Notes: generated by a model from the sequence alone, not told the origin. A stretch of DNA of 64,000 nucleotides from Negativicutes bacterium (GCA_963665275.2 CAXXIN010000014.1:5430-69429), one strand, 5' to 3'. Counted from the stretch's first letter, positions 47,677-64,000 are shown. Numbers and translations are program-made.

Positions 47677-47822
47677 GTTGTGCCTCCTCTGCCGATATTT
47701 CATGACAAAAGGCCCGTCCGTCTTCACGGCGGGCCTTTCGGCACAGAACATATTTTGCTAATAGAATCGGTTTGTTGGGCGCGCCCATGCAGTTGCAGGT
47801 TAAATAGCGCTCTAGAGCGGAT

Positions 47823-48497
47823 CTAATCTGTCCCCATGCCGCGCGGCAGGATATGGAATAGTCCCACGCACGGTCCAACAATACAAACCCGTTGACGATC
47901 ACCGGCGGTATAGACTTCCGGTGGTTGCGAGGAGTCTGCAGCCTGCAAGACGAGGGTGTCGGGTTGCACTTGGACGCAATACCTGAGGCAAAGACGATTG
48001 CCGTCGATAATTACCATGCAAAAATCGCCGGGTCGTACCTTGGCGTTGACGTGAGTCAAGACCAAGCACCCCTCCCCAATTCCTGCCATCGCCATAGATG
48101 AATCGGGAGCCGGGAGCAGGACGGCCTGGACGCCGCGGGAAACCGTAGCGACCTCGGCCGGGACGGGATAGGTGCCGTGAAAACTCAAAAAGGCTAACCT
48201 CCCTTCAATAACGGCCACAGATTTATAGATCGGCACGTAGACAACGTCTCCGATCCGAACTGAATCTGCCGTCGCTGAATACCCCAGGAGGTTATCAACT
48301 GTGGTATTGAAAATTTGTGCGATTCGCGGCAGCATCTGAGATTCCGGCGTTCGTTTGCCGATCTCCCATCCGGATACTGTCACTGGTGAAACGCCCAATT
48401 TTTCCGCTACCTGTTTCTGGGTCATCTTCTGTTTGTGCCGTAAATTTTGCAACGTGGTTTGCAGCGGAAAAACATGGGCAGATTTCGAATGAGTCAT
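47823..48497 (-). CDS. cI/LexA-like repressor (XRE HTH plus S24 peptidase domain)
   Basis: HTH MTQKQVAEKLGVSPVTVSGWEIGKRTP and a C-terminal S24-like fold. Divergent from the Xis-like gene. Confidence 0.88.
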   Translation of the reverse strand: MTHSKSAHVFPLQTTLQNLRHKQKMTQKQVAEKLGVSPVTVSGWEIGKRTPESQMLPRIAQIFNTTVDNLLGYSATADSVRIGDVVYVPIYKSVAVIEGRLAFLSFHGTYPVPAEVATVSRGVQAVLLPAPDSSMAMAGIGEGCLVLTHVNAKVRPGDFCMVIIDGNRLCLRYCVQVQPDTLVLQAADSSQPPEVYTAGDRQRVCIVGPCVGLFHILPRGMGTD

Positions 48498-48588
48498 GAA
48501 AATAACCACCCTTCGAAGATAGTATATGCCTCTCGTTTATAAAAATCAATACATATCCTCACACATATTCACATGAAATTCAAAGGTA

Positions 48589-48658
48589 TTGACAGTTTTT
48601 AAACAACAGGAATAGAATAACAGCGAGCTAAAAAAATACTATCCTTAATGGATAGTAT
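48589..48658 (+). promoter_or_regulatory. Rightward promoter and palindromic operator of the switch region
   Basis: ttgaca (48589-48594), 18 nt, tagaat (48613-48618). Inverted repeat atactatcc-ttaat-ggatagtat (48636-48658). An extra half-site gatagtat at 48518-48525 lies outside this span. Confidence 0.5.
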
Positions 48659-48689
48659 GGAATGATGGGGAAACAAGGGAGGAATTGAA

Positions 48690-49163
48690 ATGAAAGCGAA
48701 AGCAAGCACAAAAGCAGTGAAAGGGAGTGGCGGCGCGGCCCTCAGGTTGGCCAAACCCGGGGAAGCGCCGGAGCCCTGCCGTATCCCTTTGAAACCAGGA
48801 ACAACAAAGCCTAGTGCGGCAGAAATGGCGTTTACGGAAGCCGCTGTCGCAAAATCAATGCTGCATACCGAACAGATCGCGCCTGGCAACAAGCTGGCCT
48901 ACAATGTCAGGGAAGCAGCGGAAGCGCTGGGGGTATCCCCCTGGTATGTGCGCGATGAGATGAATCTCGGGCGGTTGGGCTTTTCCTCCGCGCGTGGCCG
49001 CAAAATCATCCCACGCTGGGAACTGGTGCGATATCTGGAAGAATACATGCAGGGACACTCTGAAGCGGCAGGAGACGAAGAGAATACGCCACTCGTGCCA
49101 AACGACTCCGGGACCCCGTCTCTAAAGAAGGCGCTCGCAGGAAGTAAAAAAAGAATGATCTGA
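48690..49163 (+). CDS. Excisionase-family (MerR-like) HTH DNA-binding protein
   Basis: AYNVREAAEALGVSPWYVRDEMNLGRL...IPRWELVRYLE is the typical Xis-type HTH. RBS aagggagg. Confidence 0.65.
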   Translation: MKAKASTKAVKGSGGAALRLAKPGEAPEPCRIPLKPGTTKPSAAEMAFTEAAVAKSMLHTEQIAPGNKLAYNVREAAEALGVSPWYVRDEMNLGRLGFSSARGRKIIPRWELVRYLEEYMQGHSEAAGDEENTPLVPNDSGTPSLKKALAGSKKRMI

Positions 49164-49231
49164 CAGGTCAGCGGGTATGAAACAAGCTGGATCGGTCGGA
49201 TTTTTTTATGGGCAACTGCGCTGGCGGCGCT

Positions 49232-49351
49232 TGTGGATAAGCCTGTGGATAACGCTGCGTGAAGTACAAAGATTGCCGATCAGATGGACGCAGAGTGCCA
49301 GAGAGAGTGACAATGAGCGGCTATCAGAGTGACACACATTGTCACTCTCTC
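49232..49351. other. Origin-like site: two perfect DnaA boxes plus a 15-bp palindrome
   Basis: tgtggataa at 49232-49240 and 49244-49252. gagagagtgacaatg (49301-49315) pairs with cattgtcactctctc (49337-49351). (c)agagtg(a/c)c is repeated three times. Confidence 0.6.
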
Positions 49352-49523
49352 ATAGCCCGGGCCCAGTCAGCTGTAGGATGAGCGGCTCCCTAACATACAG
49401 AGAATACCTTACAGAAGAAATTACAACGGAACCTAAAGGGGACCAGCTCCAATAAGGATCAGAAAAAGGTCTGATAGAGACCCTCAGATAAAATCAAACC
49501 GATGAAAATGATGGAGAAGGAGT

Positions 49524-50195
49524 ATGGAAAATATTGCAGCGATTGTTCAAAGTCTGCTGCCGGCGAAGGGCGCCGACGGATCCTGGCAAAGAGCGAATCT
49601 GCCAGTAGCGGAACCGTCCAACAGAGCACAGCTACATCCGGATAAAGTCCCGTTCATTACTTTTCCGGTATCTATCGGCTTGTTGGAAGGAAAGCACGTC
49701 GAGGCCATGGGAATCGCCGTCTGGTGCTTTTTATGGTGCATCAATAGGGTAACCTCGGATCGCACCGATCCGGACGGAGAGCGTTGGGGTCAGGTTCTCG
49801 GCGGCTGCCGGTTCAACCATCAACGGATTGCCGATGAACTCGGGATCAGCCTGCGGGCGGTCCGTTACCAGATGGATCGTCTGAGATCAGGAGGTTACCT
49901 GCGCATTACCCGTTGCCAGGACGGGCAGCAGGTGGAAGTCCGGCACAGCATCAAATGGCTGCGCAGAAAAACTCAGGGCGCGCCAAACAGCCGGCCTGAA
50001 CTGCCACCACCCGTCACAAAACTACCGGACATAGATCCTCCTGTCAGCGTCCCGGAAGTGCTGGTGAACCCGGTGGTTTCGGTGGCAGAGGAGTCTATCT
50101 CGCCAGAGCCCGATGCTGAAACCGCCAAGGTGTTTTCTCTGGCGGAAGCCTTGCGCAGGAAACAATGGGAGCGGGAGCAAGGCTTGCGGGAATAA
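49524..50195 (+). CDS. Winged-helix DNA-binding protein, putative island replication initiator/organizer
   Basis: 223 aa. IADELGISLRAVRYQMDRLRSGGYLRI is a wHTH. It sits immediately downstream of the origin-like site. No family was recognised by eye. Confidence 0.5.
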   Translation: MENIAAIVQSLLPAKGADGSWQRANLPVAEPSNRAQLHPDKVPFITFPVSIGLLEGKHVEAMGIAVWCFLWCINRVTSDRTDPDGERWGQVLGGCRFNHQRIADELGISLRAVRYQMDRLRSGGYLRITRCQDGQQVEVRHSIKWLRRKTQGAPNSRPELPPPVTKLPDIDPPVSVPEVLVNPVVSVAEESISPEPDAETAKVFSLAEALRRKQWEREQGLRE

Positions 50196-50645
50196 AACTC
50201 CCCTCCCGCCGAAAAAGCGGGAGGGGCTGGGGGTAGGTCCGAGACCCTAGCCGACCGAGGCGATTCCGACAGGGAAAACTTCCAGTGAGCTGCCGCCACC
50301 TGCCGACACGTCGGATAATAGCCCCACGTTATGTCAACCCGAAGGGCGCGCAGCGAAAGCGAGCGGTAGACGCGTAGCGGACTACTTTTGACATAACGTT
50401 CTATTATCGGATGGGCCGGCATGACTGGGCTGAATGATGGCACCCGTTCCCCCGTCCTCCGGCAGCTACCGTGGCCGATGGATCGGGCGCGGTGGCTGCT
50501 ACCCAGGCAGCAACAGACGCTAGGCAGTAACGAGGCGTGATCCGGACCGGGGCAGTATGCGCCGGGGAGGATGACGCCGACGGGATAGGGCAGGAATCTG
50601 CGGGAGGCGATGCGGTTCCCGGCGGTCTGATGCCAAGGCGGCCCG
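50196..50645. ncRNA. Candidate structured noncoding RNA (family not recognised)
   Basis: About 450 nt with no convincing ORF; one hand-counted 60-nt line was 70% G+C. Nested long-range helices (gttatgtcaa 50328-50337 / ttgacataac 50388-50397), a gcGAAAgc tetraloop, and a terminator-like hairpin at 50200-50226 that is T-flanked only on the minus strand. Confidence 0.35.
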
Positions 50646-50684
50646 ACGAACGGCAAACGGAAGCCCGCCACGTCGGTGGCGGGC
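50646..50684 (-). terminator. Intrinsic terminator of the ankyrin gene
   Basis: gcccgccac-gtcg-gtggcgggc 9-bp perfect stem, followed on the minus strand by ttccgtttgccgtt. Confidence 0.65.
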
Positions 50685-50728
50685 TGGAGGCCGGGCTAGG
50701 GACGCAAAGCGAGATGGGGACGTTTAAA

Positions 50729-52390
50729 TTATTTGGCTCCATATTGCTTCAGATATTCTATCGTTTTCTTAAACTCAGGAATATTATATTTTTTGTCACA
50801 TTCCAGCGCATAGTCGAGAGCACTACGGCGACCCTGGTCAAGGACATGCGGATTAGCGCCCATTTCCAGCATTCGTAGGATGATTTCGGGTGGGCCGCCC
50901 CAGGCCGCGTACATCAGAGGAGTTTTCCCATATTGATCTTGCACATTAATCGCTGCGCCTCTATCCAGCAGCAAGTTCATTTTTAACCTTCTGCCACCAC
51001 CGTGCTTTGCGGCCAAAATTAGGGGAGTTCCGCCCTGATTATCCCGCGCGTTAATATCTGCGCCTGCGTCAAGCAATATCAGCATTTTCGTGTTGTTATC
51101 CATAGTCGTTGATACCATCCACATCAAAGGGGTTCTTCCTTCATCATCCCGCGCATTGACTGCAGCACCCATTTCAACAAGTAATTTTGCGATATCCGGC
51201 TTATAGGCAGCGCTAGCCTGCATTAATACCGTCGTTCCTTTGTTGTTTTTCGCATGAATATCAGCACCGTGATCAATCAACATTTTTGACAAATCGGAAG
51301 TCCCGTTTTTCGCGGTAGCATGCAGCAACGGCGTGGATCCTGTTTCGTCCCTGGCGTTGATATCTGCGCCTGCCTCCATCAGATATTGAATTTTGTTCAT
51401 GCTTTCTATTTGGCTGGGCCTATGACTACTTTGATACCAACGTACTGCTTCAATAAATGCATTGTTTTTGTCCGCCGGCGAAAAACGAATCCCTTTGGAC
51501 AACAAATCTTTGACTGTTTCCAAACTCCCCCGCCCGGCCGCGTAGATCAGAGCCGTTTTCCCGCTGGCATCTTCAGCCTGGATATCGGCGCCTTGGGCAA
51601 GCAATAAATCCACGGCATCCACTTTTCCCGTTTCGGCAGCACTCATAAGTGCGATTTGACCTTGGCTGGTTTTTGAATTGACATTTGCACCGTTTTCCAA
51701 CAACAGTTTCATAGCTTCGAGATTTCCTCTGTTACTGGCTACCATCAGCAGCGTATTTTCTGGAAGGGAGATGGTTTCCACGCCAGCGAAAGGCTTCTGT
51801 CTATATATCTTTACCGTCTTTCCACCACCATCAAGGTTTTTCGCATTCACATCCGCGCCTTTGGCGATCAAGAGTCTGGCCAGATCCAGGTTGCCTTGCT
51901 CCAGCGCAATTCCGAGGGGGGCTTCCCACTGGTTGTTTCTTTCGTTGATGCCGATTCCGCCATAGATCAAGGGCTTGGCCAGGAATGGATATTCTTTGAC
52001 GGCCAGTGCCGTTGGCGTTCGGACTCCTTGGGCACCCAGCAAGCAACTGAGGATAGCGCAAGCAAGAGTGAATCCTACGAAAATTTTCGCTCGACGTTTG
52101 GCTTTCGCATCTTCGGTTAAGGACCGGTAACGGGAGAGCATGTGGCCGCTGACAGGGCAGAGGACTATAACAATAAAAACTAAACATAACACGAACCACT
52201 CTTCCAAATTCCAAGGCTCATGTTGAGCGATAAAAGCCCAGACAAAATAAGCGATAGGTAAAAGCACAAAGAATCGAACAACGGTATACCCATCGAAAAT
52301 CCGTAGATTTTTCAGCGTAGCAATCATAAAGACCAACCAGCAAACAAATACAACACTGAGAAGAGGTGCGATCTTCACTAGCAGCAGCAT
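50729..52390 (-). CDS. Membrane-anchored ankyrin-repeat protein (4 predicted TM segments plus at least 9 ANK repeats)
   Basis: Start MLLLVKIAPLL after the RBS aaaggag. Hydrophobic segments occupy the first ~150 aa. Then repeated G.TPLM.AA..G....LL..GA..N units (for example GRTPLMWMV..., GGTPLILAAKHGG, GKTPLMYAAWGG). Confidence 0.88.
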   Translation of the reverse strand: MLLLVKIAPLLSVVFVCWLVFMIATLKNLRIFDGYTVVRFFVLLPIAYFVWAFIAQHEPWNLEEWFVLCLVFIVIVLCPVSGHMLSRYRSLTEDAKAKRRAKIFVGFTLACAILSCLLGAQGVRTPTALAVKEYPFLAKPLIYGGIGINERNNQWEAPLGIALEQGNLDLARLLIAKGADVNAKNLDGGGKTVKIYRQKPFAGVETISLPENTLLMVASNRGNLEAMKLLLENGANVNSKTSQGQIALMSAAETGKVDAVDLLLAQGADIQAEDASGKTALIYAAGRGSLETVKDLLSKGIRFSPADKNNAFIEAVRWYQSSHRPSQIESMNKIQYLMEAGADINARDETGSTPLLHATAKNGTSDLSKMLIDHGADIHAKNNKGTTVLMQASAAYKPDIAKLLVEMGAAVNARDDEGRTPLMWMVSTTMDNNTKMLILLDAGADINARDNQGGTPLILAAKHGGGRRLKMNLLLDRGAAINVQDQYGKTPLMYAAWGGPPEIILRMLEMGANPHVLDQGRRSALDYALECDKKYNIPEFKKTIEYLKQYGAK

Positions 52391-52521
52391 AGCAGCTCCT
52401 TTCCAATTGTTGCTATTTTCCGCAGGGTATTTCTGGGTTCCTGCGGACAAAAAGCTTAATTATATAGGACGATTGTCCTGTTGTGGACATTGAGTTATTA
52501 GTGCGAGGTCAGAGCGGCCCG

Positions 52522-52560
52522 ACGAACGGCAAACGGAAGCCCGCCACGGATGTGACGGGC
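52522..52560 (-). terminator. Intrinsic terminator (near-copy of the one after the ankyrin gene)
   Basis: gcccgccac-ggat-gtgacgggc stem (one mismatch), followed on the minus strand by ttccgtttgccgtt. Confidence 0.6.
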
Positions 52561-52593
52561 ATTACGGATCGACGCCGGCAGCATACAGCTCGC

Positions 52594-52788
52594 TCATTGG
52601 CGGGCGATACGCAGGCGAACCTGTTGGTCGATTTCGCGGCGGGCTTCCGATAGCGAAAGATGGCCGGACTCCACGCGGGCGAATATGTGGCGGCTCCATT
52701 CCGGAACTGCGGCATTCTCCAGTCGCAAATCGGCGCGGGCCTGGCGCATGGCTTCCGCCACCGGCAGGGTTGTAATGATCTTTTTCAT
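52594..52788 (-). CDS. VbhA-like (Fic-antitoxin family) small protein
   Basis: MKKIITTLPVAEAMRQARADLRLENAAVPEWSRHIFARVESGHLSLSEARREI aligns by eye, without gaps, to Bartonella VbhA as I recall it (...SQRLEGLEPDPQVVAQMERVVVGELETSDVIKDL). LEG/LEN, G+17, L+19 and S+22 are conserved. Confidence 0.6.
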   Translation of the reverse strand: MKKIITTLPVAEAMRQARADLRLENAAVPEWSRHIFARVESGHLSLSEARREIDQQVRLRIARQ

Positions 52789-52819
52789 CGGCAACACGCC
52801 CTTTCTGGCAATAATGTGA

Positions 52820-52863
52820 TATCAAAGTAGTATCAAAGTAGTATCAAAATAGTATCAAAGTGC
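52820..52863. repeat. Four tandem 11-bp direct repeats (TATCAAARTRS)
   Basis: tatcaaagtag, tatcaaagtag, tatcaaaatag, tatcaaagtgc. They lie in the divergent spacer between the VbhA-like gene and the antirepressor gene. Confidence 0.85.
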
Positions 52864-52941
52864 TACTACTTTTATAGTATATCATGCCGCAGAGCTGCCA
52901 TGGAGGAGGGCAGTCAGACGGCGAAAAAAGGAGGCTTTCCC

Positions 52942-53790
52942 ATGCAAAAAAATCAATCACTCGAACGCGTATTCCACTTTCAAAACAAGCCGGTGCGAAC
53001 GCTGGACTTCTTTGGCTCGCTCTGGTTCGTGGCGAAAGATGTCTGCGAAGTTCTCCGAATTCGAACGAATTCCATCCGGTGCGTCCTGGATGAAGATGAG
53101 GTGCGAGCGTTCAATCCCAATGACAATAGTATTGACATTGGGCAAGAGGAAGTCGGGCATGGCGGACGCAACATGCTGGTGGTAAGCGAACCCGGACTCT
53201 ATTCTCTCGTATTGAAATCGCGCAGGCCTGAAGCGCGGCAGTTCAGGCGCTGGATTACCCACGAAGTTATTCCGGTGCTGCGGGCGGCCGGCAGCTACCA
53301 AATGCCAGCTCCTGCCGGGTCGGGTCAACTGTTGCAGTTTTCCCGGCGGGATCTGCTCAATCTGGCGGTGGAGGCGGAAACCGAATGCGAGGAGCTGCGC
53401 GGTGTCGTGGTCGACATGTTGCCCAAGGTTGAATTTTACGACCGGGTGGCGGACACGAGCGCGTCGTTTTCGCTCGGAGAAACGGCCAAGATGATGGAGA
53501 TCCCCGGTTTCGGACGCAACAACTTGATCCGGTTCCTGCGGGATGGGGCCGGAGTCCTGATGGCCGACAACGTGGCCAAGCAGAAATATATCAACCGAGG
53601 CTATTTTCATATCGTACAGAGGGACTACTGCGCGCCGGACGGTACGCCGCGCGTGAAAGCGGTGACGCGGGTCTATGAAAAAGGCGTCGATTATATCCGA
53701 CACCTTCTGGATGACGGTGAATACTTGGTTGCTGCAAGCGGTAGCGCAGACAGCAGCCATAGTAGATCCGCATCCGAAGGATGGAGGTAA
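52942..53790 (+). CDS. Phage antirepressor (Bro-N domain plus KilAC domain)
   Basis: MQKNQSLERVFHFQNKPVRTLDFFGSLWFVAKDVCEVL (Bro-N) and a C-terminal KilAC-like segment ...FYDRVADTSASFSLGETAKMM...YINRGYF. RBS aaggagg. Confidence 0.88.
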   Translation: MQKNQSLERVFHFQNKPVRTLDFFGSLWFVAKDVCEVLRIRTNSIRCVLDEDEVRAFNPNDNSIDIGQEEVGHGGRNMLVVSEPGLYSLVLKSRRPEARQFRRWITHEVIPVLRAAGSYQMPAPAGSGQLLQFSRRDLLNLAVEAETECEELRGVVVDMLPKVEFYDRVADTSASFSLGETAKMMEIPGFGRNNLIRFLRDGAGVLMADNVAKQKYINRGYFHIVQRDYCAPDGTPRVKAVTRVYEKGVDYIRHLLDDGEYLVAASGSADSSHSRSASEGWR

Positions 53791-53902
53791 GTGGTGGCAA
53801 GCGCCAGCGCAGACAGTGGTCATAGTAGATCCGCATCCGGAATGAAGTGAAGGACGAATGAGATCTGGACCGCGCGAACGCGGGCCGGTAGGGTGGAAAC
53901 GT

Positions 53903-53938
53903 AAAACAGCCGCCGCAGGAGAATGCGGCGACTGTTTT
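53903..53938 (+). terminator. Intrinsic (bidirectional-looking) terminator
   Basis: aaaacagccgccgc / gcggcgactgtttt stem flanked by A and T runs. Confidence 0.7.
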
Positions 53939-54098
53939 GAAGAAGAGGATGATACTCAGGGGCAAGCAAAGCGACCAGACAGCGCTCGCCAGTATCTACG
54001 GGTGCATATCCGTTGATACTTCATTATCTTACACCTGATGCAAGAGGAAGGACAACTTGGATTTTCCTTGGTATCGGGCAAAAAGGGAGGCATATTTT

Positions 54099-54707
54099 AT
54101 GAAAATCTGTATTGATCCGGGGCATAGCGGACCGGTAGAGCCGGGAGCTTGCGCTGGCGGCGCGACAGAGGCGGCGATTAATCTGCAGGTGGCAAAGATT
54201 CTGGGCAAGATGCTCGAGAATGCCGGGCACAAAGTAGTGTTGACGCGGGTTGATGACATCGAGGACATTACCTTGACGTGGCGCTGCGAGGTGGCGTGGA
54301 AGTTCCGGGCGGATCTTTTTATCTGTATCCACTGCAATGCTCATGAAGATAAGGAGGCGCACGGAACGGAGACCTGGTATTACGAGACCAGCGAGCGGGG
54401 GCACAATCTGGCGCGCTGCATCCAAGCGGCTATCGTCGCCAACTGCGGCACGACCGATCGGGGTGTGAAGTCTAAAGATGACTGGACCGTGCTGCAGGGT
54501 ACCACCTGTCCGGCGGTATTGGTGGAGTTGGCATTCATCACGAATGACGAGGAGCGCGCCCGGTTGACCGATCCATTTCTGCAGCGGCAGTTCGCGGTGG
54601 GAATCAGCAACGGGATCGAACAGTTCGCCAAGGGCGGCTCGCTGTTCGGCGGCGTGGCGGAGAGGCGACAAAGCTACGATATACGGGCCTTCGCGCGGAG
54701 GCGTTGA
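54099..54707 (+). CDS. N-acetylmuramoyl-L-alanine amidase (Amidase_3 family)
   Basis: MKICIDPGHSGP..., HCNAHEDKEAHGTETWY, VLVELAFITNDEE. RBS aagggagg. Confidence 0.9.
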   Translation: MKICIDPGHSGPVEPGACAGGATEAAINLQVAKILGKMLENAGHKVVLTRVDDIEDITLTWRCEVAWKFRADLFICIHCNAHEDKEAHGTETWYYETSERGHNLARCIQAAIVANCGTTDRGVKSKDDWTVLQGTTCPAVLVELAFITNDEERARLTDPFLQRQFAVGISNGIEQFAKGGSLFGGVAERRQSYDIRAFARRR

Positions 54708-55114
54708 CAGTTTTTCGGCGGTGGATCTATACTTAGTTCAGACAAACGAATAGCGCACAGGGGATGGAGCGCACGCACATGGGTATCCCCGCAGGACTTG
54801 CAATCCTTGCGGCTACCATACAGTACCTCCATCCCCATTTATCGGGACACGTCGCCATGGCGTGTCCCTTTCTCATGCCCGGCGGCCCATCAAGGCCCAT
54901 CTACTACGTTACGGCTGTGTTTTTCCTGCTTGCGTACGATCTGTACGCCGCGCAGTAAAAGCCTCGCCGTGCCTTGTAGCTGAACCTTGCTGAACCGTCG
55001 GGCGGAAAAAAGAAGCGGGATGCAGGCACAACCGGAAAACCGGGGCCTCGCGTCCCGTTTTTCATAAATACGCAGGGAACGCGCGAAAGCGCTGCCCCGA
55101 AAGGAGGGATCCTC

Positions 55115-55339
55115 ATGGCTGTTACTAAAGCGCCCCAGGAATCCCGCATCGGCATCAAAGTCATCAACGGCGTCAACGCCACCGGGGGCAACGTGTTCAA
55201 GACGCTGGGCTTTTCCAATGTGAAGCCCGCCGCGCTGGACCAGGACGTCTACGATGTCGCCGCCAGCCTCGCAGGACTGCAGGCGAAATCGCTGGTCTCG
55301 ATCGTGCGAACCGACACCGCCAACCTGATCGGCGAGTAA
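55115..55339 (+). CDS. DUF1659 family protein
   Basis: 74 aa with the pattern ...GIKVINGVNATGGNVFKTLGFSNVKPAALDQDVYDVAASLAGLQ. It is the first member of the recurrent DUF1659-DUF2922-YvrJ trio. Confidence 0.72.
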   Translation: MAVTKAPQESRIGIKVINGVNATGGNVFKTLGFSNVKPAALDQDVYDVAASLAGLQAKSLVSIVRTDTANLIGE

Positions 55340-55373
55340 CGCCGGCACTAAATTTTAAGGAAAGGAGGGGCAA

Positions 55374-55589
55374 ATGATGACTCGAACACTCAAACTCGGA
55401 TTCAAAAATGCGGACGGCAAGGATGTGAACATCCTTGTCGCCGACCCGAAAGACGGCATTACCAAAGTGGAAGCCGTCGCCGCCCAGACGCTGATCATCG
55501 CCCGGAACCTGTTCGCATCGACCGGCGGCGATCTCATCTCGGCGCTCGATCCCGTTGTGTTGACTCAGGACACCACGCTGCTGGCCTAG
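55374..55589 (+). CDS. DUF2922 family protein
   Basis: MMTRTLKLGFKNADGKDVNILVADPKDGITKVEAVAAQTLIIARNLF. Confidence 0.72.
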   Translation: MMTRTLKLGFKNADGKDVNILVADPKDGITKVEAVAAQTLIIARNLFASTGGDLISALDPVVLTQDTTLLA

Positions 55590-55593
55590 TCTC

Positions 55594-55788
55594 ATGGACT
55601 GGGCGCAGCTCATCTCCCAAGTGGGATTCCCGATTGCAGTTTCTGCATGGCTTTTGATCCGCCTAGATGATCGACTCGGCGCGTTCGAAAAGACCGCCGT
55701 GGCGATCTGCCAGCGGCTCGAGGACCAAAGCAACCGCTGCAGTGAATGCAAAGAGTGGAGGCAGCGAAACGAAAAAATGAAGGCATAA
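55594..55788 (+). CDS. YvrJ family small membrane protein
   Basis: 64 aa with a single TM segment, LISQVGFPIAVSAWLLIRL. Confidence 0.7.
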   Translation: MDWAQLISQVGFPIAVSAWLLIRLDDRLGAFEKTAVAICQRLEDQSNRCSECKEWRQRNEKMKA

Positions 55789-55829
55789 GCGCTGACCACG
55801 CCATCTTTGCTGAAACAAGCTAAAAATGA

Positions 55830-55871
55830 GGGACACGCTGCCGAAGGAAAGGCAGCTGTCCCGCATTTTTT
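55830..55871 (+). terminator. Intrinsic terminator closing the DUF1659-DUF2922-YvrJ unit
   Basis: gggacacgctgcc / ggcagctgtccc stem then gcatttttt. Confidence 0.75.
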
Positions 55872-55917
55872 GTCATAAAACAACAATGAAAATAATTGAG
55901 GGAAAGAGGTTTTGAAT

Positions 55918-56343
55918 ATGTTGTTAACAGATGTGACCAAGATTTTGAAAGTACTGCTCGGAGCGTTCGGGGCTGTGGCCTCCCGCGATGATCTTACCCA
56001 GCGCCGGATCGGCCAGATCGGCGAAGTGATCGGCGCGGTGGATGATGTGGCGGCGTATGAGGAAGACAAGGACGGTGGGGGTGGGACGATGGCCCAGAGG
56101 CGCGTCGAGGAAGCGCATGATATTATCCACCGGGTGGCAGCGATATTGGCGATGGAGGATGAGGGGGAGAACGGTGGCGGAGACAATTCTGGCGATGCGG
56201 GGCAGGACAATACAGGATTGGAAGCAACTGCCGAGCAGGACGTCATCTCCAGGAAGAATGGTGACGAGCCGCTGGCTGAAGTTCCTTGGGACGGGACGAT
56301 CGACGGGGAGACCATTGAGCTGAAGGAAGACGAAGAAGAATAA
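55918..56343 (+). CDS. Hypothetical acidic protein
   Basis: 141 aa with a hydrophobic N-terminus (LLTDVTKILKVLLGAFGAV) and a D/E/G-rich tail. RBS aagagg. No family recognised. Confidence 0.5.
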   Translation: MLLTDVTKILKVLLGAFGAVASRDDLTQRRIGQIGEVIGAVDDVAAYEEDKDGGGGTMAQRRVEEAHDIIHRVAAILAMEDEGENGGGDNSGDAGQDNTGLEATAEQDVISRKNGDEPLAEVPWDGTIDGETIELKEDEEE

Positions 56344-56588
56344 CCAAGAAGAAAATCATTGGCTAAATGAAAATGACTGGCTGGAACAACTTCAGCTGGT
56401 CGTTTCGTTTCAGAACACCTGAGCAATGTATTCAAAGATGGCCGATTAGCGTCAGGCGGCAGAGTGATCCGGAAATTCCGGATAACTGCGTCTGACGTCA
56501 ACGAGCCGCTGGCCGAGTTCCTGAGGACGGGACACTCGCGGGGGAGACCATCGAGCTAAAGGAAGCTGAAGAAGAATAGCATAACTGT

Positions 56589-56812: not shown

Positions 56813-56853
56813 GTATGATGTCATCAGATGGTCGATCATGGAGGAAATGGAAA

Positions 56854-58464
56854 ATGAATGCGAAAGCATTAGAATCTTTTGTCCAATTGTTATACATACG
56901 AAACATGGTGGATCGGGAGCAGATCTTGTTGGAAGCTGTTCGAGTCGTTCGGACTTTTCAACAGCTGCACAACCGACAAGAAACCATTTCCGACACACCG
57001 GAAGATAAAGAACTCTTGTTTGCTGAAATGCAAAGTGTTTCGGAGTCTTCCGAATTGGGACACTTTCCCGGTGATCGGGAATTTTTCTACAACCTCTTTG
57101 CGGTTGCATGTGAACTCGACCTGATAGAGTTGCTGGTCAAGTCCGGCCGAAACGACCGCACAGGAATGCTGGCGCCCGCGTATCTGGTCGAATATTTGGC
57201 CGGTGGGATTACAAAAGACACCGCCCGGGTTTTCGTGGCAGAAGCTGAAAAATTTGCCGAAGGTCTGCAAAAATTAATAGCAGAGAATCCCAAAGTGGAA
57301 TTTACATTAACGACGGAAAAGAAAATACATTATCTCCTCCTGGTAACGGCTTTTTCACAAAACCATAATGTCCGGATACTGAATCAATCGATTTATCGTG
57401 AACTGTTACATAAAGACAGCTATGATTTATTGCTCACCATTCCATCGTTTGGCAATCGTTATAACTCGGAGGAATCCAACAATAATTTTATCACTCGAGA
57501 CTCGGAATGCATCGCCGTGGAAAACCTCCTCCGCCATCTTGGCGAGCGCGGAAAACTGGCCGCAGTGTTGCCTGCCAAAGTAACCTTCGCCAGCGGTCCG
57601 GTTCAGGAGTTTAGACAATGGATCATGGCCGACTATCACCTGGAAGCCATATACTCTCTGCCAGAAGGAATCTTCCGGCCCTATGCTGGCATCAAGACGT
57701 ATTTAATGGTTTTTGACGCAAAAACGACGATAGGGGTTACAGTCGGCAAAATAATCGATGAGGACTATAGACTGCTAGTCAAACAAAAGCAATGGATTTC
57801 CGACGTAGAATTCAACGGGCACGAAGATTGGCGGACAGAAATATATCTCGCCGATGATAACGAAGCCATCCAGAAGTTTAAAACCTCCGGTCTCGAAAAA
57901 ATCAAACTCAAGGATGTGGCAGAAATCTTCCGGGGCAAGTCCGTGCTCAAAGATGATCTGCAGCCAGGAAAAATAAGAGTCCTGAATATATCCAACATGG
58001 ACGAAGGCGAACTCATCTTCGACGAAATGGACACCATCCACGAAGAAATTCGCAAGGTGAAACGGTATCAACTGGAATCTGGCGATATCGTGCTAACCTG
58101 TCGGGGGACATCAAACAAAGTCGCCGTCTTCCCGGAAACAGAGCATGTGGTCATTGCCTCGGCAAACATCATCGTGCTGCGTATCAAAGAAAAGATCGCG
58201 CCTCAATATCTGAAAATATTCCTGGATAGTCCGATCGGACAAATGATGATCAAGAGTTTTCAACGGGGAACCACGATGATGAACATCAACCCCAACGACA
58301 TCGGCGAAATGGAGATTCCGCTGCTGCCCATGGAAAGACAACAAAGTCTCGTTCGGCAGTTTCTGGCAGAACAGGAACGATATCGGCGGGAAAAAGCGGA
58401 AATTGAACAGCGATGGGAAAAAGAACGCTCGGAACTATACAATAATTTTGTAAGGGGATGCTAA
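56854..58464 (+). CDS. Degenerate N6-adenine MTase-like domain fused to a single HsdS-type target recognition domain
   Basis: 536 aa. The MTase-fold landmarks are present, but motif I reads [10 protein letters not shown] and motif IV reads TIPSFG where NPPF/Y is expected. The C-terminus is a Methylase_S-like TRD plus a coiled-coil helix. The stop is 1 nt before the hsdM ATG. Confidence 0.8.
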
Positions 58465-58465
58465 G

Positions 58466-60004
58466 ATGGCGGAGAATGCGAATGGTGCAACACTTGGCTT
58501 TGAAGAAAAACTGTGGCAGGCTGCGGACAAAATGCGCAACAATATGGATGCGGCCGAATACAAACATGTTGTATTGGGCCTACTGTTTTTGAAATACATT
58601 TCCGACGCATTCGAAGAAAAATACGAAGAGTTGAACAAGGATGCACTGTCTGATCCAGAAGACCGAGACGAATATACGGCAGTAAATATTTTCTGGGTCG
58701 CCAAAGAAGCCCGCTGGAACTTTATCAAGGAAAGTGCAAAAAGCCCGAAAATCGGTCAGATCATCGATGAAGCCATGGTGGCCATCGAGAAAGATAATTC
58801 CAATCTCAAAGGGGTACTGCCAAAAGATTATGCCCGGTCCACGCTGGACAAAACCCGGCTGGGTGAACTGATCGATATTCTTTCCTTCAATATAGGGGAT
58901 AAGGAGAGCCGGTCGCAGGATATCTTGGGCCGAGTCTACGAATACTTCCTCTCCAAATTTGCAAGCGCCGAAGGTAAAAACGGCGGTGAATTTTATACGC
59001 CGCAGTGCGTAGTAAAACTGCTGGTGGAAATGATCGAGCCGATGAAAGGGAGAATCTATGACCCCTGCTGCGGATCAGGCGGCATGTTCGTGCAAAGCGA
59101 GCGCTTCCTGAGTGCGCATAGTGGCAAGCGCGGCGATATTTCGGTATACGGGCAGGAATCCAATCCCACGACCTGGCGGCTGTGCAAGATGAATCTGGCC
59201 ATTCGAGGCATCGATGGCAAGCTCGGCGACTACAATGCCGATTCCTTCCATAATGACCTGCACAAAAGTCTGAAGGCGGACTATATCCTGGCGAATCCCC
59301 CCTTCAACATCAGCGACTGGGGCGGCGCGAAACTGACCGAGGATGTCCGCTGGAGCGGCTACGGCATACCGCCGGCCGGTAACGCAAACTACGCCTGGAT
59401 TCTGCACATGCTCTGGCATTTGGCTCCCAGCGGCATTGCTGGATTTGTCCTGGCCAACGGTTCCATGTCGACGTCAACGACGAGTGAAGGTGAAATCCGA
59501 AAACAGTTGGTGGAAAAGGACAACGTCGACTGCATCGTGACCCTGCCGGGGCAGCTGTTCTATTCGACGCAGATTCCGGTATGTCTGTGGTTTGTGACCA
59601 AGAATAAGGCGGCGAAGGGACACCGCAGCCGCAATGGCGAAATCCTGTTCATCGACGCGCGGAAACTGGGCACCATGGCGGACCGGACCCATAAGGAATT
59701 TTATGACGAGGATATTAAAAAGATTGCCGATACCTACCATTCCTGGCGCGGTGAAGAAGGGACCGGAGAGTATGCGGATGTCAAAGGTTTCTGCAAAGCA
59801 GCGAAGCTGGAAGAAGTCCGGGAACACGAATATATCCTGACGCCGGGGCGATATGTGGGGATCGAAGACGTGGAGGAAGACGCCGAGCCGTTCGAGGAGA
59901 AGATGACGCGCCTGACGGGGGAATTGGCCGAGATGTTTGCCAAGTCGCGGCATTTGGAAGGCGAGATTCGGCAGCGGCTGGGGGCGATCGGGTATGAGTT
60001 CTGA
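58466..60004 (+). CDS. hsdM: Type I restriction-modification system methyltransferase subunit
   Basis: HsdM N-terminal domain ([34 protein letters not shown]), motif [11 protein letters not shown], motif IV LANPPFN. Confidence 0.95.
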
Positions 60005-60033
60005 AAAGGAAAGATTAGTATTGGGATGTGATT

Positions 60034-61242
60034 ATGTTGAATGAAAAAAACACGGTGTGGAAAGACACGGTGCTTGGTATATTTATTTCCATTCAACGGG
60101 GTCATGATCTGCCAGAGCAAAACCGCAATAGTGGTGAAATTCCAATAATCGGATCCTTCGGAATTACTGGCTTTCATAATAAATCCATAGCTCAAGGTCC
60201 CGGAGTAACTATTGGTCGAAGTGGCGCGTCCATGGGTGTTGTGTCTTATTCCGACAAAAATTATTGGCCGCTAAATACCGTTTTATATGTCACAGATTTC
60301 CATGATAATGATCCTAAATTCGTTTATTACCGCTTAAAAACGATTGATTTTACAATATATAATTCTGGCAGTGCGCAACCATCATTAAATCGAAATTATA
60401 TATATTCGGTTCCATTATGCATTCCAAATAAAAACGAGCAACGTGCCATCGCAGCCACCCTCTCCGCCCTCGACGACAAAATCGAAATCAACAACCGCAT
60501 CAACAAAACCTTGGAAGAAATGGCCCAGGCCCTCTTCAAGCGATGGTTCGTCGATTTCGAGTTTCCGGACGAAAATGGCTTGCCGTACAAGTCCTCCGGC
60601 GGGGAGATGGAAGAGAGCGGACTGGGGCCGATTCCGAAGGGGTGGAAGGTTGAATCACTCGATAGTATCGCGGATTATTTAAATGGACTTGCTATGCAAA
60701 AATATCGACCTGAAGGCGAAGAGTTTTTACCTGTTATTAAGATTCGTGAACTCAATCAAGGGAAACCTGATGGACAAAGCGATAAAGCCAGCCCCAATAT
60801 TGATTCTAAGTACATTGTTAATGATGGTGATGTTTTATTTTCATGGTCGGGAAGCCTAGATGTGAAAATATGGTGCGGAGGTAAAGGCGGTTTAAACCAA
60901 CATTTGTTTAAAGTGACATCTGATCGATATGAAAAATGGTTTTACTATTTGTGGACCAAGCACCATCTTGAAAAATTTCGCGGAATTGCACAGGATAAAG
61001 CAACTACCATGGGACACATACAAAGAAAACACCTTAAAGAATCTTTGGTAGATGTTCCTGCGCAAGATGTTTTGGGGAAAATTAATTCGATAATGCGGCC
61101 GATTTTTGACCTTTATATCACAAGAGAAATTGAAGCAGCGACCTTGGTGGCAATAAGAGACACCCTATTACCCAAACTTATCAGTGGCGAAATCCGTATG
61201 GATAGCTCATTTGCGGAGGACATCGGTAATGGAGAAAGTTAG
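60034..61242 (+). CDS. hsdS: Type I restriction-modification system specificity subunit (two TRDs)
   Basis: Two TRDs separated by a central conserved helix (EQRAIAATLSALDDKIEINNRINKTLEEMAQALFKRWFVDFEFP), plus a distal helix (TLLPKLISGEIR). Confidence 0.93.
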   Translation: MLNEKNTVWKDTVLGIFISIQRGHDLPEQNRNSGEIPIIGSFGITGFHNKSIAQGPGVTIGRSGASMGVVSYSDKNYWPLNTVLYVTDFHDNDPKFVYYRLKTIDFTIYNSGSAQPSLNRNYIYSVPLCIPNKNEQRAIAATLSALDDKIEINNRINKTLEEMAQALFKRWFVDFEFPDENGLPYKSSGGEMEESGLGPIPKGWKVESLDSIADYLNGLAMQKYRPEGEEFLPVIKIRELNQGKPDGQSDKASPNIDSKYIVNDGDVLFSWSGSLDVKIWCGGKGGLNQHLFKVTSDRYEKWFYYLWTKHHLEKFRGIAQDKATTMGHIQRKHLKESLVDVPAQDVLGKINSIMRPIFDLYITREIEAATLVAIRDTLLPKLISGEIRMDSSFAEDIGNGES

Positions 61243-62506
61243 AATTGAATCAATTGGTGATTTCGTGGAAATATTAAGCGGTCTCCGAACACTCTTGGCG
61301 GAAGAAGGCAACGACAAAATTGCTTTCTTCCGGGGGCAAAAAAATTCCGGCTGGGAAGAGATTTATCCGAGTGTCTTTCGCGCCCCATATTTGATGGCTG
61401 AAAATGAATTATATTACAATCTGTCGATGAAATGCCCAGAAGCAATACCAGCTAATTTTTCGATTATAGATAAACTGGTGCTTATGCAGCATTATGGATT
61501 ACCCACGCGACTTCTTGATGTTACAACCAATCCTTTAGTCGCTTTATTCTTCGCTTGCCAGAAAAACACCGAACGAGTACCAGCGTCTGAGAACTGTGAA
61601 ATGAGTCATGAAGGCTGCTTTCGGGAAATCGAAACAGACGGAGAAATCCTTGTTTTACGTGATTATCGTCCTCAACAAACCGGATTTGAGAGAGCAAGCG
61701 TTATTGCTGCATTGGCAGAAATTAATTATCAGTTTACCCTGGGCGAGTTAAAAATGATCATAGATCGGCGAGGGTTAGGGACGTATTCAATATCAAGTTT
61801 GTCCGATATGTTGCAGCAAAGCTTGCCAATAAACACAAGAATGAATAACGAAAGAATTAAGAGACAATCAGGAGCGTTTATTATTTGCGGAACGCATCTG
61901 AATTTTGAAGATACTAACTCTGACGATTCTGTGGCGGTGAAGAAAGCAATTAATTTGCGGACCCGATTTGAACAAGACGCTGGGGTACGCTACGTGGTTG
62001 CGTGGGATAAGAAAGAGCAAATATTGGAAGAGCTTGATTTCATAGGAATCAATGAATCCTTCCTTTATCCGGAAATAGAGTATCAGTCCAAGTATATTAG
62101 AGAGCATCAAATAAGGAATATCCAGTTTGATAGCGGGATCGATGGCGCTGAGCGAACGAAATTAGCAGAAGAGCTAGAAGAAGTGAATTTATATGTATCG
62201 CCTGAAAACCTTGAACGTTTTGCAGAAAGAGCGAAGATAGAAATACTTCTTATATTACAAGGCGTTGAGCAGAAAGAAATAATAACAGATTATATTGGCG
62301 AGATACTAAGAAACAACTTGGATGTGGATTGGATAAATAGAGAGGCCAGCAAGGCCAAAATTGCAGTAGCGATTAAGCGCGTATTCAGGGAACACACAAC
62401 GCTCGATTTTGTTCGAGTGAAAAAACTTATAGATGACATTCTTTTAATTGTTGAAGATTGCTATCATAAATGCGCAGCTTCACAGGAGGTACCTGAAAAT
62501 GTTTGA
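61229..62506 (+). CDS. FRG domain protein with an unassigned C-terminal region of ~200 aa
   Basis: IAFFRGQKNSGWEEIYPSVFR and LVLMQHYGLPTRLLDVTTNPLVALFFA are FRG-domain landmarks. The start overlaps the hsdS end by 14 nt. Confidence 0.85.
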   Translation: MEKVRIESIGDFVEILSGLRTLLAEEGNDKIAFFRGQKNSGWEEIYPSVFRAPYLMAENELYYNLSMKCPEAIPANFSIIDKLVLMQHYGLPTRLLDVTTNPLVALFFACQKNTERVPASENCEMSHEGCFREIETDGEILVLRDYRPQQTGFERASVIAALAEINYQFTLGELKMIIDRRGLGTYSISSLSDMLQQSLPINTRMNNERIKRQSGAFIICGTHLNFEDTNSDDSVAVKKAINLRTRFEQDAGVRYVVAWDKKEQILEELDFIGINESFLYPEIEYQSKYIREHQIRNIQFDSGIDGAERTKLAEELEEVNLYVSPENLERFAERAKIEILLILQGVEQKEIITDYIGEILRNNLDVDWINREASKAKIAVAIKRVFREHTTLDFVRVKKLIDDILLIVEDCYHKCAASQEVPENV

Positions 62507-63213
62507 AAAAATTGATCAGAACAAGGCTCGCATTGACGCGCTGCGTCCGATGCAGGGCAGCTTGCTCACACAGATTCGAGACTATTACAAAATCGGCCTG
62601 ACCTACTCCAGCAATGCGCTCGAAGGCAACTCCCTCACGGAAACGGAACCAAAGTTTTGTTGGAGGACGGCCTGACTGTCGGCGGCAAGCCGATCAGGGA
62701 CTACTACGAGGCGACGGGTCACGCCAAGGCCTATGACTATATCTATACGCTCATGCAAGGCGAAGAACTGGGCGAAGTGCAGCTGAAAACCATCCACCGT
62801 CTGTTTTATTCCCTGATTGATGAAGCGCAGGCCGGGCAGTACCGCAAAGAAAGGGTCATTATCTCTGGGTCGAAGTATCCGGTGCCGCACCGGAGAAGGT
62901 CCAAGCACTCATGAACGGTTTTTTTCACTGGTTGTCTACGCAGGAAAAGCTGATGCATCCGGTGGAATTCGCCGCGAAGGCGCACAAGGAATTTGTCTTT
63001 ATCCATCCTTTTGTGGACGGTAACGGCCGGGTGGCGCGGCTGCTGATGAATCTTTGCCTGTTGCGGCAGGGGTACACGATGGCGATCATTCCGCCGGTTC
63101 TGCGAGGCGACTACATCGCTCTGCTGGAAAAAGCGCATGAGGACGACACCGCCTTTGTGAACTTCATTGCCGAACGGGTGGAAGAAACGCAGAAGGATTT
63201 GCTGCGGCTTTAA
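62499..63213 (+). pseudogene. Fic family protein (class II, intrinsic inhibitory helix), two 1-nt frameshifts
   Basis: Three ORF pieces (62448..62675, 62657..62914, 62911..63213). N-terminal SNALEG inhibitory motif and active site HPFVDGNGRVARLLMN. Shifts near 62648 and 62885. The start overlaps the FRG stop by 8 nt. Confidence 0.85.
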
Positions 63214-63265
63214 AATAGCGGGGTCTTCTGGACAGGGTCTGATTTTGTTGGGGGGGTGCGATTCG

Positions 63266-64000
63266 TGACGGCGTATAATTTCAATGAATCCGAATTGGAG
63301 CAGGCGGTGCTGGAGTGCTTCCAGGAACTCTATTACGACATTCAGCAGGGACCGGAGATTTCACCGGGCGGTGCTTATCCGAACGGGACGACTACAACCT
63401 GGTGATTCTGCAAGACCGTCTCATGAATGCGCTCCGGCGAATCAATCCGAAAATGCCGACGGAAGCATTGGAGGACGCCTATCGCCAGGTCGTCATCGCC
63501 AAAAGCCCCAGCCTGATTGTGAATAATAAGGAGTTCTATCGCCTTATCACCGACGGAGTCAACGTAGAAGTCCGGCGGGCGGATGGATCCATCAAGACGG
63601 ACAAGGTGTGGTTGTTCGATTTTTCGGATGAAGGAACGGACAATAACGATTGGCTGGCCGTCAACCAATACACCGTGATTGAAAATCATAACCATCGCCG
63701 GCCTGATGTGATCGTTTTCATCAATGGGATTCCGCTGGCGGTGATTGAATTGAAGAGCACCTCCGATGAAAATGTGGGGGTTACCGAAGCCTTCCGGCAG
63801 TTTGAGACCTATAAAAACGAAATTCCCTCTCTGTTCATCTACAATTCATTTCTGGTGATCAGTGATGGCGTGAATGCAAAAGCGGGAACCCTGACCGCCA
63901 ATGAAGATTGGTTCATGCCCTGGCGGACCATCGATGGCGTGGAGGTTGCCCCAACAGCGCTGCCGCAGCTGGAAGTGCTGATCAAGGGAATGTTTGATAA
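63266..64000 (+). pseudogene. hsdR: Type I restriction enzyme R subunit, N-terminal part (continues off-window), 1-nt frameshift near 63378
   Basis: VTAYNFNESELEQAVLECF..., then in another frame ERDDYNLVILQDRLMNALRRINPKMP...RRPDVIVFINGIPLAVIELKS (nuclease motif). That frame is open to the window end. Confidence 0.88.

Follow-up and report, generated by a model that had tools for sequence, protein, structure and literature searches.

An FRG-domain protein with an HsdR-like tail and a separate Fic gene between hsdS and hsdR of a Negativicutes type I restriction-modification operon

Introduction

What are an FRG-domain gene and a Fic gene doing in the hsdS-hsdR gap of a type I restriction-modification (R-M) operon, and do the two belong together? 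The locus that raises this question lies in a stretch of 64,000 nucleotides (nt) from a Negativicutes bacterium (GCA_963665275.2 CAXXIN010000014.1:5430-69429), referred to here as the window, in whose coordinates all positions are given. An initial annotation of the window had placed both genes, FRG (61229-62506, plus strand) and Fic (62499-63213, plus strand), in a slot like that of PrrC and the rlo genes, and had proposed that they form one latent backup module which is released when anti-restriction proteins disable the type I enzyme, a pairing that it believed to be undescribed.

It is recognised that new anti-phage systems can be found among the genes that lie nested in restriction operons. 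The nesting of defence genes in type I operons is already established through PrrC, the rlo genes, TgvAB and a 'guilt by embedding' survey, in which PADLOC phage defence candidates were defined by their location inside BREX, DISARM or type I R-M loci (Payne et al. 2024, bioRxiv 10.1101/2024.01.29.577857). PrrC is held inactive by the type I enzyme EcoprrI and is released on inhibition of EcoprrI by T4 Stp. It is, to our knowledge, the only nested gene whose connection to the restriction enzyme itself is understood mechanistically. The FRG gene of the window opens the question of a second class of restriction-tethered effectors, in that it represents a large family without experimental characterisation, has a fixed place on the hsdS side of the operon, and carries a tail like the docking region of HsdR.

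In the reading that we prefer, and to which we assign a probability of roughly 0.55, the locus is a type I R-M operon beside a phage-like element, in which FRG would be a tethered effector and Fic an independent passenger, so that the hsdS-hsdR slot would hold two independent inserts, and in which single-base deletions would have inactivated Fic and hsdR in this genome. Here we set out the evidence on which this reading is based, together with the alternatives that compete with it.

Results and discussion

Placement of FRG in type I loci

A single tightly packed string of genes starts at 56815 on the plus strand and continues up to the window's end, and within it the order hsdM, hsdS, FRG, Fic, hsdR given by the initial annotation is borne out by the coordinates of the open reading frames (ORFs) and by Pfam. 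The overlaps that it reported are exact: the ATG of FRG at 61229 sits 14 nt inside hsdS and the ATG of Fic at 62499 sits 8 nt inside FRG, with a GGAGG box 9 nt upstream of each. FRG is intact, encodes a protein of 425 amino acids (aa) and represents the long form of its family. Like Fic, it lies in the gap that separates hsdS from hsdR in a type I operon, a location that is indeed of the PrrC/RloC type.

One genome per GTDB species was scanned for FRG, and the 80 best loci were kept and annotated with iterated hidden Markov models (HMMs) seeded from the HsdM, HsdS and Fic of the window and one full-length HsdR. The dominant order among these loci is HsdM-HsdS-FRG-HsdR, which recurs in Clostridia, Bacteroidota, Negativicutes, Spirochaetes, Paenibacillus, Undibacterium, Agarivorans and Vibrio, and which is seen with long (~390-450 aa) as well as with short (~280-300 aa) forms of the protein. 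Linkage to R-M genes was found for 37 of the 40 best loci as compared with 15 of the next 40. Where the neighbourhood could be evaluated, hsdS stands immediately upstream of FRG in 30 of 59 loci, and hsdR follows FRG within 300 nt in 39 of 66 loci and within 5 kb in 46. The junctions on both sides are tight: the distance from the hsdS stop to the FRG start ranges from -34 to +47 nt in 29 loci, 13 of them overlapping, and in 24 of 26 loci no more than 30 nt separate the FRG stop from the hsdR start. Additional cargo, present in seven loci, sits between FRG and hsdR and leaves FRG next to hsdS in six of them, the exception being L020. This cargo is varied, and includes a Thoeris ThsA/ThsB pair (L008), a reverse transcriptase with DUF6978, DUF1828/1829 and DUF3990 (L012), AAA_21 with DUF4276 (L020), RhuM (L066) and small membrane proteins (L013, L040, L064). 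Judged from sequence, FRG is a lineage-conserved fourth gene of that type I family whose HsdR carries a PF11867 C-terminal domain. The association with type I loci is conserved for FRG and not for FRG with Fic.

The FRG family as a whole is large, with 26,760 clusters at 50% identity matching its profile at E<=1e-3. The closest relatives of the window protein, P0002 (66% identity) and P0003 (63%), are encoded on short metagenomic contigs in which hsdS, FRG and Fic follow one another and overlap by 14 nt and 8 nt, exactly as in the window. The next relatives stand at ~34% identity and the best match among GTDB representatives at 33%, and a scan of Joint Genome Institute (JGI) metagenomes returned no close relatives of FRG.

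Many of the type I loci with FRG (L017, L019, L022, L033, L046, L048, L062, L086) are of the shufflon type, with several hsdS fragments and a recombinase-sized ORF of ~330 aa. In these phase-variable loci FRG always follows the last copy of hsdS.

An HsdR-like tail in long-form FRG

The C-terminal ~130 residues of FRG are particular to the long form. Within them, residues ~351-397 (62279-62419, plus strand; IITDYIGEILRNNLDVDWINREASKAKIAVAIKRVFREH) are homologous to the C-terminal tail of PF11867-type HsdR proteins, whose consensus in these loci reads ...LRKNRTIDWQKKESARAxMRxxVKRLLKKYKYPPE. The Pfam model itself, PF11867 (T1RH-like_C), scores the window protein at 1.9e-4, below the family cut-off, while several FRG homologs carry precomputed matches to it and P0271 reaches 27.3 bits against a gathering cut-off of 26.8. 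Alignment of FRG C-termini with HsdR C-termini by hhalign gave a probability of 88 and an E-value of 3.2e-6 over 46 columns. An HMM built from HsdR tails only ranked the window protein as the top-scoring FRG (25.5 bits, i-E 5.8e-8), matched the same C-terminal position in ~40 long FRGs, and among the 3823 ORFs of all loci detected only HsdR and FRG down to an E-value of 0.1. In the reciprocal comparison, an HMM built exclusively from FRG C-termini matched 50 HsdR proteins (4e-8 to ~1e-6) and nothing else among these ORFs.

Two gene fusions bring the same components together. In the first, a protein of 978 aa found in two independent assemblies (L099 3365-6301), FRG is joined to the N-terminal, helicase and D3 domains of HsdR without the HsdR C-terminal domain; in the one contig examined it stands alone, with no hsdM or hsdS. 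In the second, a protein of 625 aa found in one assembly (L100 8001-9878), half of an HsdS is followed by FRG and the HsdR-like tail, and the gene closes an hsdS inversion shufflon within a locus whose order is hsdR-hsdM-hsdS.

Type I HsdR has a C-terminal domain described as an alpha-helical protein-protein interaction domain that is purported to contact the methylase (PMC2602864). The presence of an HsdR-like tail on FRG suggests docking of the protein on the methylase core, where it would be a tethered effector of the PrrC kind. We infer the docking, effector role and trigger of FRG as follows: the long-form tail would be a copy-like version of the HsdR C-terminal tail, through which FRG may dock on the HsdM2-HsdS core, or on whatever binds the HsdR tail, and the docked protein would be a restriction-complex-tethered effector that is positioned, and probably controlled, like PrrC. 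PrrC of EcoprrI (hsdM-hsdS-prrC-hsdR) and the Campylobacter rlo genes fill the same hsdS-hsdR slot in one operon as FRG does, and the logic of an effector coupled to a type I enzyme is plausible for FRG. At most, the HsdR-like tail is an indirect hint that FRG may, like PrrC, be kept latent by the R-M complex and activated by anti-restriction proteins. The proteins themselves differ, PrrC being an ABC-ATPase combined with an anticodon nuclease to which FRG has no sequence relation, and neither FRG nor Fic matched the PrrC or RloC models of PADLOC or Pfam. We know of no report of an HsdR-like tether tail in PrrC.

The FRG core and its predicted chemistry

The family landmarks described in the initial annotation are all found in FRG. 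Residues 32-115 match PF08867 at 65.6 bits (gathering cut-off 25, E 7.8e-18), and both FFRGQ and MQHYGLPTRLLDVT are present. All 30 columns that are invariant in a 108-sequence alignment of the family are kept, including R35, G36, Q87, H88, R94, D97, N207, R209, R212, Q213, E282, E284 and Q286. The ~200 residues that had been left without assignment can now be divided into a conserved family core at ~120-295, in which NNERIKRQSGAF and the P-E-x-E-x-Q motif (PEIEYQ) are invariant or nearly so, and the HsdR-C-terminal-like segment at ~351-397.

In PADLOC, the protein matches the candidate PDC-S15 (PDLC04927) with an E-value of 2.5e-74 over profile positions 12-413 of 422. The notion that both passengers are defence genes fits with this assignment, since FRG (PDC-S15) and Fic (PDC-S04) each belong to a family flagged as a defence candidate. 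PDC-S15 is a single-gene candidate listed by Payne et al. as untested, and the window FRG is likewise embedded between hsdS and hsdR; neither FRG nor PDC-S15 is mentioned by name in the text of Payne et al. or in the supplements searched.

As to its chemistry, the Frg clade has been placed in the ADP-ribosyltransferase (ART) superfamily and predicted to act as an anti-viral effector, possibly as an NADase, according to the account of Burroughs and Aravind (2020) cited in Iyer et al. (2022, PMC9503650). The window FRG belongs to the same Pfam family, and under this published prediction it would be an NAD+-consuming or ADP-ribosylating enzyme of the ART superfamily; the ART fold, marked by a split beta-sheet and an NAD+-binding triad, was, however, not confirmed by Foldseek. 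Confident AlphaFold2 models were obtained for the full-length protein (predicted local distance difference test (pLDDT) 85.8, predicted template modelling score (pTM) 0.69) and for its N-terminal 295 residues (pLDDT 86.1, pTM 0.85). The top-ranked Foldseek match of the full-length model was diphtheria toxin, at a non-significant E-value of 0.27. The FRG profile had no match among PDB sequences, and NCBIfam contains no FRG model.

One homolog, P0363 (511 aa), has its FRG domain fused to a C-terminal Peptidase_S24 domain of the LexA/CI self-cleaving type, a fusion which hints that some FRG proteins are under an SOS-type cleavage switch.

Exchange of hsdS and FRG as a cassette

The hsdS gene of the window (60028-61242, plus strand) is intact and encodes two target-recognition domains (Methylase_S 1.2e-28, in two stretches). 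Its history appears to be tied to that of FRG rather than to that of the remaining operon. The guanine-plus-cytosine (GC) content is ~0.40 for hsdS and FRG as against ~0.53 for Fic and hsdR. The backbone is held in common with L092 and L093, at 93-97% identity for HsdM (partial in both of these loci), 92-93% for Fic and 93% for hsdR at the DNA level. The window hsdS, by contrast, is 81% identical to the hsdS of L001, which also precedes an FRG gene, and 36-38% identical to those of L092 and L093. This identity pattern and the GC profile together show hsdS and FRG to be a cassette that recombined into an older hsdM...Fic-hsdR backbone; on our reading, FRG is translationally coupled to hsdS and moves with it.

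FRG and Fic differ in how they compare with their counterparts in L001. Along FRG, DNA identity is 96-100% over 61285-61644, 64-78% over 61645-62094 and 43-68% over 62095-62500, a mosaic that suggests either a recombination breakpoint inside the gene or fast divergence of its tail, while in Fic it remains at 83-87% throughout.

Probable inactivation of Fic and hsdR

The Fic sequence contains the active-site motif HxFx(D/E)GNGRxxR as HPFVDGNGRVAR at 63004-63039 (HPFVDGNGR at 63004-63030) and the inhibitory motif (S/T)xxxE(G/N) as SNALEG at 62610-62627, in the same chain and ~130 residues N-terminal of the active site. Class II Fic proteins were reportedly defined by Engel and colleagues in 2012 through an inhibitory motif of this kind N-terminal to the Fic core. 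The two motifs named in the initial annotation are thus both in place, but Fic is not a single ORF: as assembled, it is a pseudogene spread over three frames (62499-62675, 62657-62914 and 62911-63213). DNA alignment with intact relatives, which encode 240 aa, traces this to two 1-nt deletions, the first an AAA>AA change at 62647-62648 (GGAA-CC versus GGAAAC in the relatives) and the second a CC>C change at 62888 (GCCG-CAC versus GCCGCCAC).

A third deletion affects hsdR, the 5' part of which (63265-64000, plus strand) begins with GTG and extends past the end of the window. Here CCC has become CC at 63379-63380 (TAT-CCGAA versus TATCCCGAA), leading to a premature stop at 63403-63405; the N-terminus, once corrected, matches HSDR_N at 1.7e-47, and this 5' part has 93% DNA identity to the intact hsdR of L092, which reads CCC where the window reads CC. 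The intact set of hsdM, hsdS and hsdR that makes up a working type I R-M system is thereby broken at hsdR.

That the three frameshifts are assembly or base-calling errors, with Fic and hsdR intact in the organism, we consider somewhat unlikely. Each is a 1-nt deletion in a homopolymer of 2-3 nt, which is the error typical of long reads, and apart from the deletions themselves, DNA identity to intact relatives is 83-93% and no other damage is seen in either gene. However, the three events fall within 735 nt, and none is seen in the 4.4 kb of hsdM, hsdS, FRG and the ORF upstream of them, nor in ten further genes of the window that match their Pfam models along the whole length, among which are ParA, ParB, DnaB, a Lon-like protease, ABC transporter components and an AIR-synthase-like gene. 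Since all of these genes are intact, the breaks are local and do not reflect a general assembly fault, and a generally error-prone assembly was rejected as their source on the strength of the ten full-length genes. We hold it likely that Fic and hsdR are truly pseudogenised, and in the present genome the locus is probably restriction-minus and Fic-minus; what remains functional would be at most methylation (M+S) and FRG. As speculation, the frameshift in hsdR could have been selected by the risk of self-restriction after import of a new hsdS specificity.

The third Fic fragment (62911-63213) is itself an ATG-initiated ORF of 100 aa that contains the HPFVDGNGR active site, while the inhibitory helix and ~140 N-terminal residues are missing from it. 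Such a fragment probably fails to fold, and would be uninhibited if it did.

Alternative readings of FRG

Several observations weigh against a tethered FRG effector. No R-M link was found in 25 of the lower-ranked 40 loci, so that the family can evidently work alone. Short-form FRGs (~286 aa) have no tail and yet are hsdR-adjacent in 14 of 24 cases; since such tail-less proteins are still embedded, the tail is not needed for embedding. Cognate FRG and HsdR tails share an identity of 0.346 as against 0.318 for non-cognate pairs (permutation p 0.002, with no correction for phylogeny), a signal that is weak because HsdR tails are nearly invariant across loci. Foldseek returned no match at E<=0.001, either for the full-length and N-terminal models in the PDB or for the N-terminal model in BFVD. 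A search for solved structures of a PF11867-type HsdR C-terminal domain found none, the best E-value in the PDB sequence search (0.03) belonging to chance matches, and because no such structure covers this domain, its binding partner is taken over from other type I families, and the docking of FRG on the methylase core is what we infer from the resemblance of the tails. Lastly, FRG is intact despite the broken hsdR, which argues against a toxin that strictly needs HsdR for its restraint.

The principal competitor, which we regard as unlikely for FRG though it deserves to be taken seriously, is that FRG and Fic are autonomous single-gene defence or toxin genes, gathered in an insertion-tolerant hsdS-hsdR gap and carried along with the operon, with no physical or regulatory link to the enzyme. 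The great diversity of cargo in this gap (Thoeris, reverse transcriptase, RhuM, AAA_21 with DUF4276, PDC-S06, Ppl-like proteins) and the many FRG homologs without an R-M link are in line with such hitch-hiking, as is the precedent of TgvAB, which is embedded and acts independently of HsdR (PMC11411939). TgvAB, a defence system from the type I R-M cluster of Vibrio cholerae VPI-2, resembles FRG in being nested in a type I operon, and differs from it in being a GmrSD-like, HsdR-independent type IV nuclease pair with no subunit-mimicking tail (PMC11411939). For Fic, hitch-hiking is very likely the right description. For FRG it is opposed by the fixed place directly after hsdS and ahead of the cargo in six of the seven cargo-containing loci, by the tight or overlapping junctions on both sides, and by the HsdR-like tail together with the FRG-HsdR and HsdS-FRG fusions.

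The tethered-effector reading also has a more specific version, which is quite unlikely on present evidence. Here long-form FRG, by way of a tail copied from that of HsdR, would be an alternative R-subunit-like arm at the HsdR docking site of HsdM2S1, and the recognition of unmodified DNA, or the loss or inhibition of HsdR, would lead to NAD+ depletion or ADP-ribosylation instead of cleavage. If true, this would mean that a second effector output is wired directly into the restriction complex.

Very improbable, in our view, is a role of FRG as a restriction modulator and not a toxin, in which its tail would compete with HsdR for the methylase core and so adjust or postpone restriction, for instance once hsdS has been exchanged or a new host has been entered. 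The homology of the tail to HsdR is compatible with such a role, as are the co-movement of FRG with hsdS, the subunit whose exchange creates a risk of self-restriction, and the inactivation of hsdR where a foreign hsdS-FRG block sits on an older backbone. A competitor would, however, have no use for a highly conserved, enzyme-like core of ~290 residues with 30 invariant positions; moreover, short forms exist without the tail, and we found no experimental precedent for a modulator of this kind.

Fic as an independent passenger

The same gene neighbourhoods separate Fic from FRG. Once corrected for its frames, the Fic protein matches PF02661 at 4.7e-22. In PADLOC, Fic matches PDC-S04 at 2.2e-30 and SoFic at 3.6e-25, and its score of 29.3 bits against the NCBIfam SoFic equivalog NF046030 (cut-off 550) marks it as related to SoFic and not as an equivalog. 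SoFic, a class II Fic system, is validated as a defence against phage T5. Like SoFic and PDC-S04, the window Fic has the HxFx(D/E)GNGRxxR motif and the N-terminal (S/T)xxxE(G/N) inhibitory motif; it differs in that SoFic has 361 aa as compared with ~240 aa for the type found in the window, where the gene is moreover a pseudogene. Intact homologs of this ~240-aa type form more than 100 clusters, the closest among the matches listed having 85-93% identity.

Fic directly follows FRG only in the three nearest relatives of the locus, L001, L002 and L007. Elsewhere among the 80 genomic FRG loci it is sporadic and occupies other positions (L017, L086, L013). In L092-L096, a Fic that is 92-93% identical to that of the window stands directly after hsdS, without FRG and with the same 8-nt ATGTTTGA overlap, and downstream of it come PDC-S06 or Ppl-like ABC ATPases with a Schlafen/AlbA_2 protein, and finally hsdR. 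A further copy, 87% identical, lies in a toxin-antitoxin island without R-M genes (L098). The junction upstream of the Fic ATG (GGAGGT, 7 nt, ATGTTTGA) is common to the 3' ends of FRG and of hsdS. Its sequence and neighbourhoods point to Fic as a SoFic-like class II AMPylase defence gene in its own right, an optional passenger in the variable cargo position downstream of FRG.

A single latent backup module of FRG and Fic, held by the intact type I enzyme and freed by anti-restriction proteins, is highly improbable here and, to judge from these neighbourhoods, already refuted as a general arrangement: the two genes do share the PrrC slot and appear translationally coupled, and the hsdS-FRG-Fic order recurs with the same overlaps in L001, L002 and L007, but Fic occurs in only a few of the 80 FRG loci and then elsewhere in the locus, is found on the same backbone without FRG and in an island free of R-M genes, and has a history unlike that of FRG in the comparison with L001. 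Nor can Fic be a latent backup to a working restriction enzyme in this genome, because both Fic and hsdR are frameshifted.

The initial annotation was therefore partly right about FRG, whose PrrC-like position is accompanied by hints of physical coupling, and wrong in treating FRG and Fic as a unit and in regarding their embedding as new. Its statement that the pairing was undescribed survives for the specific adjacency of the two genes only, since the embedding of each family has been catalogued and SoFic is a validated anti-phage class II Fic. When the literature was searched for Fic genes within type I loci, nothing beyond mentions in strain genotypes came up, and a search for papers linking the FRG domain to a type I R-M mechanism yielded none. 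The strict hsdS-proximal placement of FRG, its co-transfer with hsdS and its HsdR-like tail appear not to have been described in the papers searched.

Flanking genes and the upstream phage-like element

Upstream of hsdS lies hsdM (58466-60004, plus strand), which is intact, has the NPPF and DPCCGSG motifs, and matches N6_Mtase at 1.9e-113 over the full profile and HsdM_N at 4.4e-26. It is preceded by an ORF of 549 aa (56815-58464, plus strand), whose stop is 2 nt upstream of hsdM and which matches Methylase_S at 1.4e-13 and, in part, N6_Mtase at 3.3e-08 in Pfam. This ORF combines a degenerate N6-methylase-like region, with IPSF instead of NPPF/Y, with a single S-type target-recognition domain, and its best PADLOC match is MADS mad5 (2.3e-23). 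No counterpart of its N-terminal part was found in the 80 FRG loci, so that the ORF was rejected as a conserved partner of these loci; it could be accessory to the window locus, or a remnant of it.

A small phage-like element, integrated immediately upstream of the R-M operon, occupies 46339-56500. It encodes an integrase (46339-47751, minus strand), a CI-like repressor (47823-48509, minus strand), an excisionase-like gene, a DnaD-like loader, an Ant/Bro anti-repressor (52900-53790), an endolysin amidase (54057-54707) and small phage ORFs. The GC content drops from ~0.58 to ~0.42 on reaching the R-M locus, and the R-M operon may therefore be cargo at the end of this element. The element also carries a gene for a 573-aa protein (50729-52450, minus strand) that consists almost entirely of ankyrin repeats (Ank_2 4.5e-95, in nine stretches), an unusual content for a bacterial mobile element.

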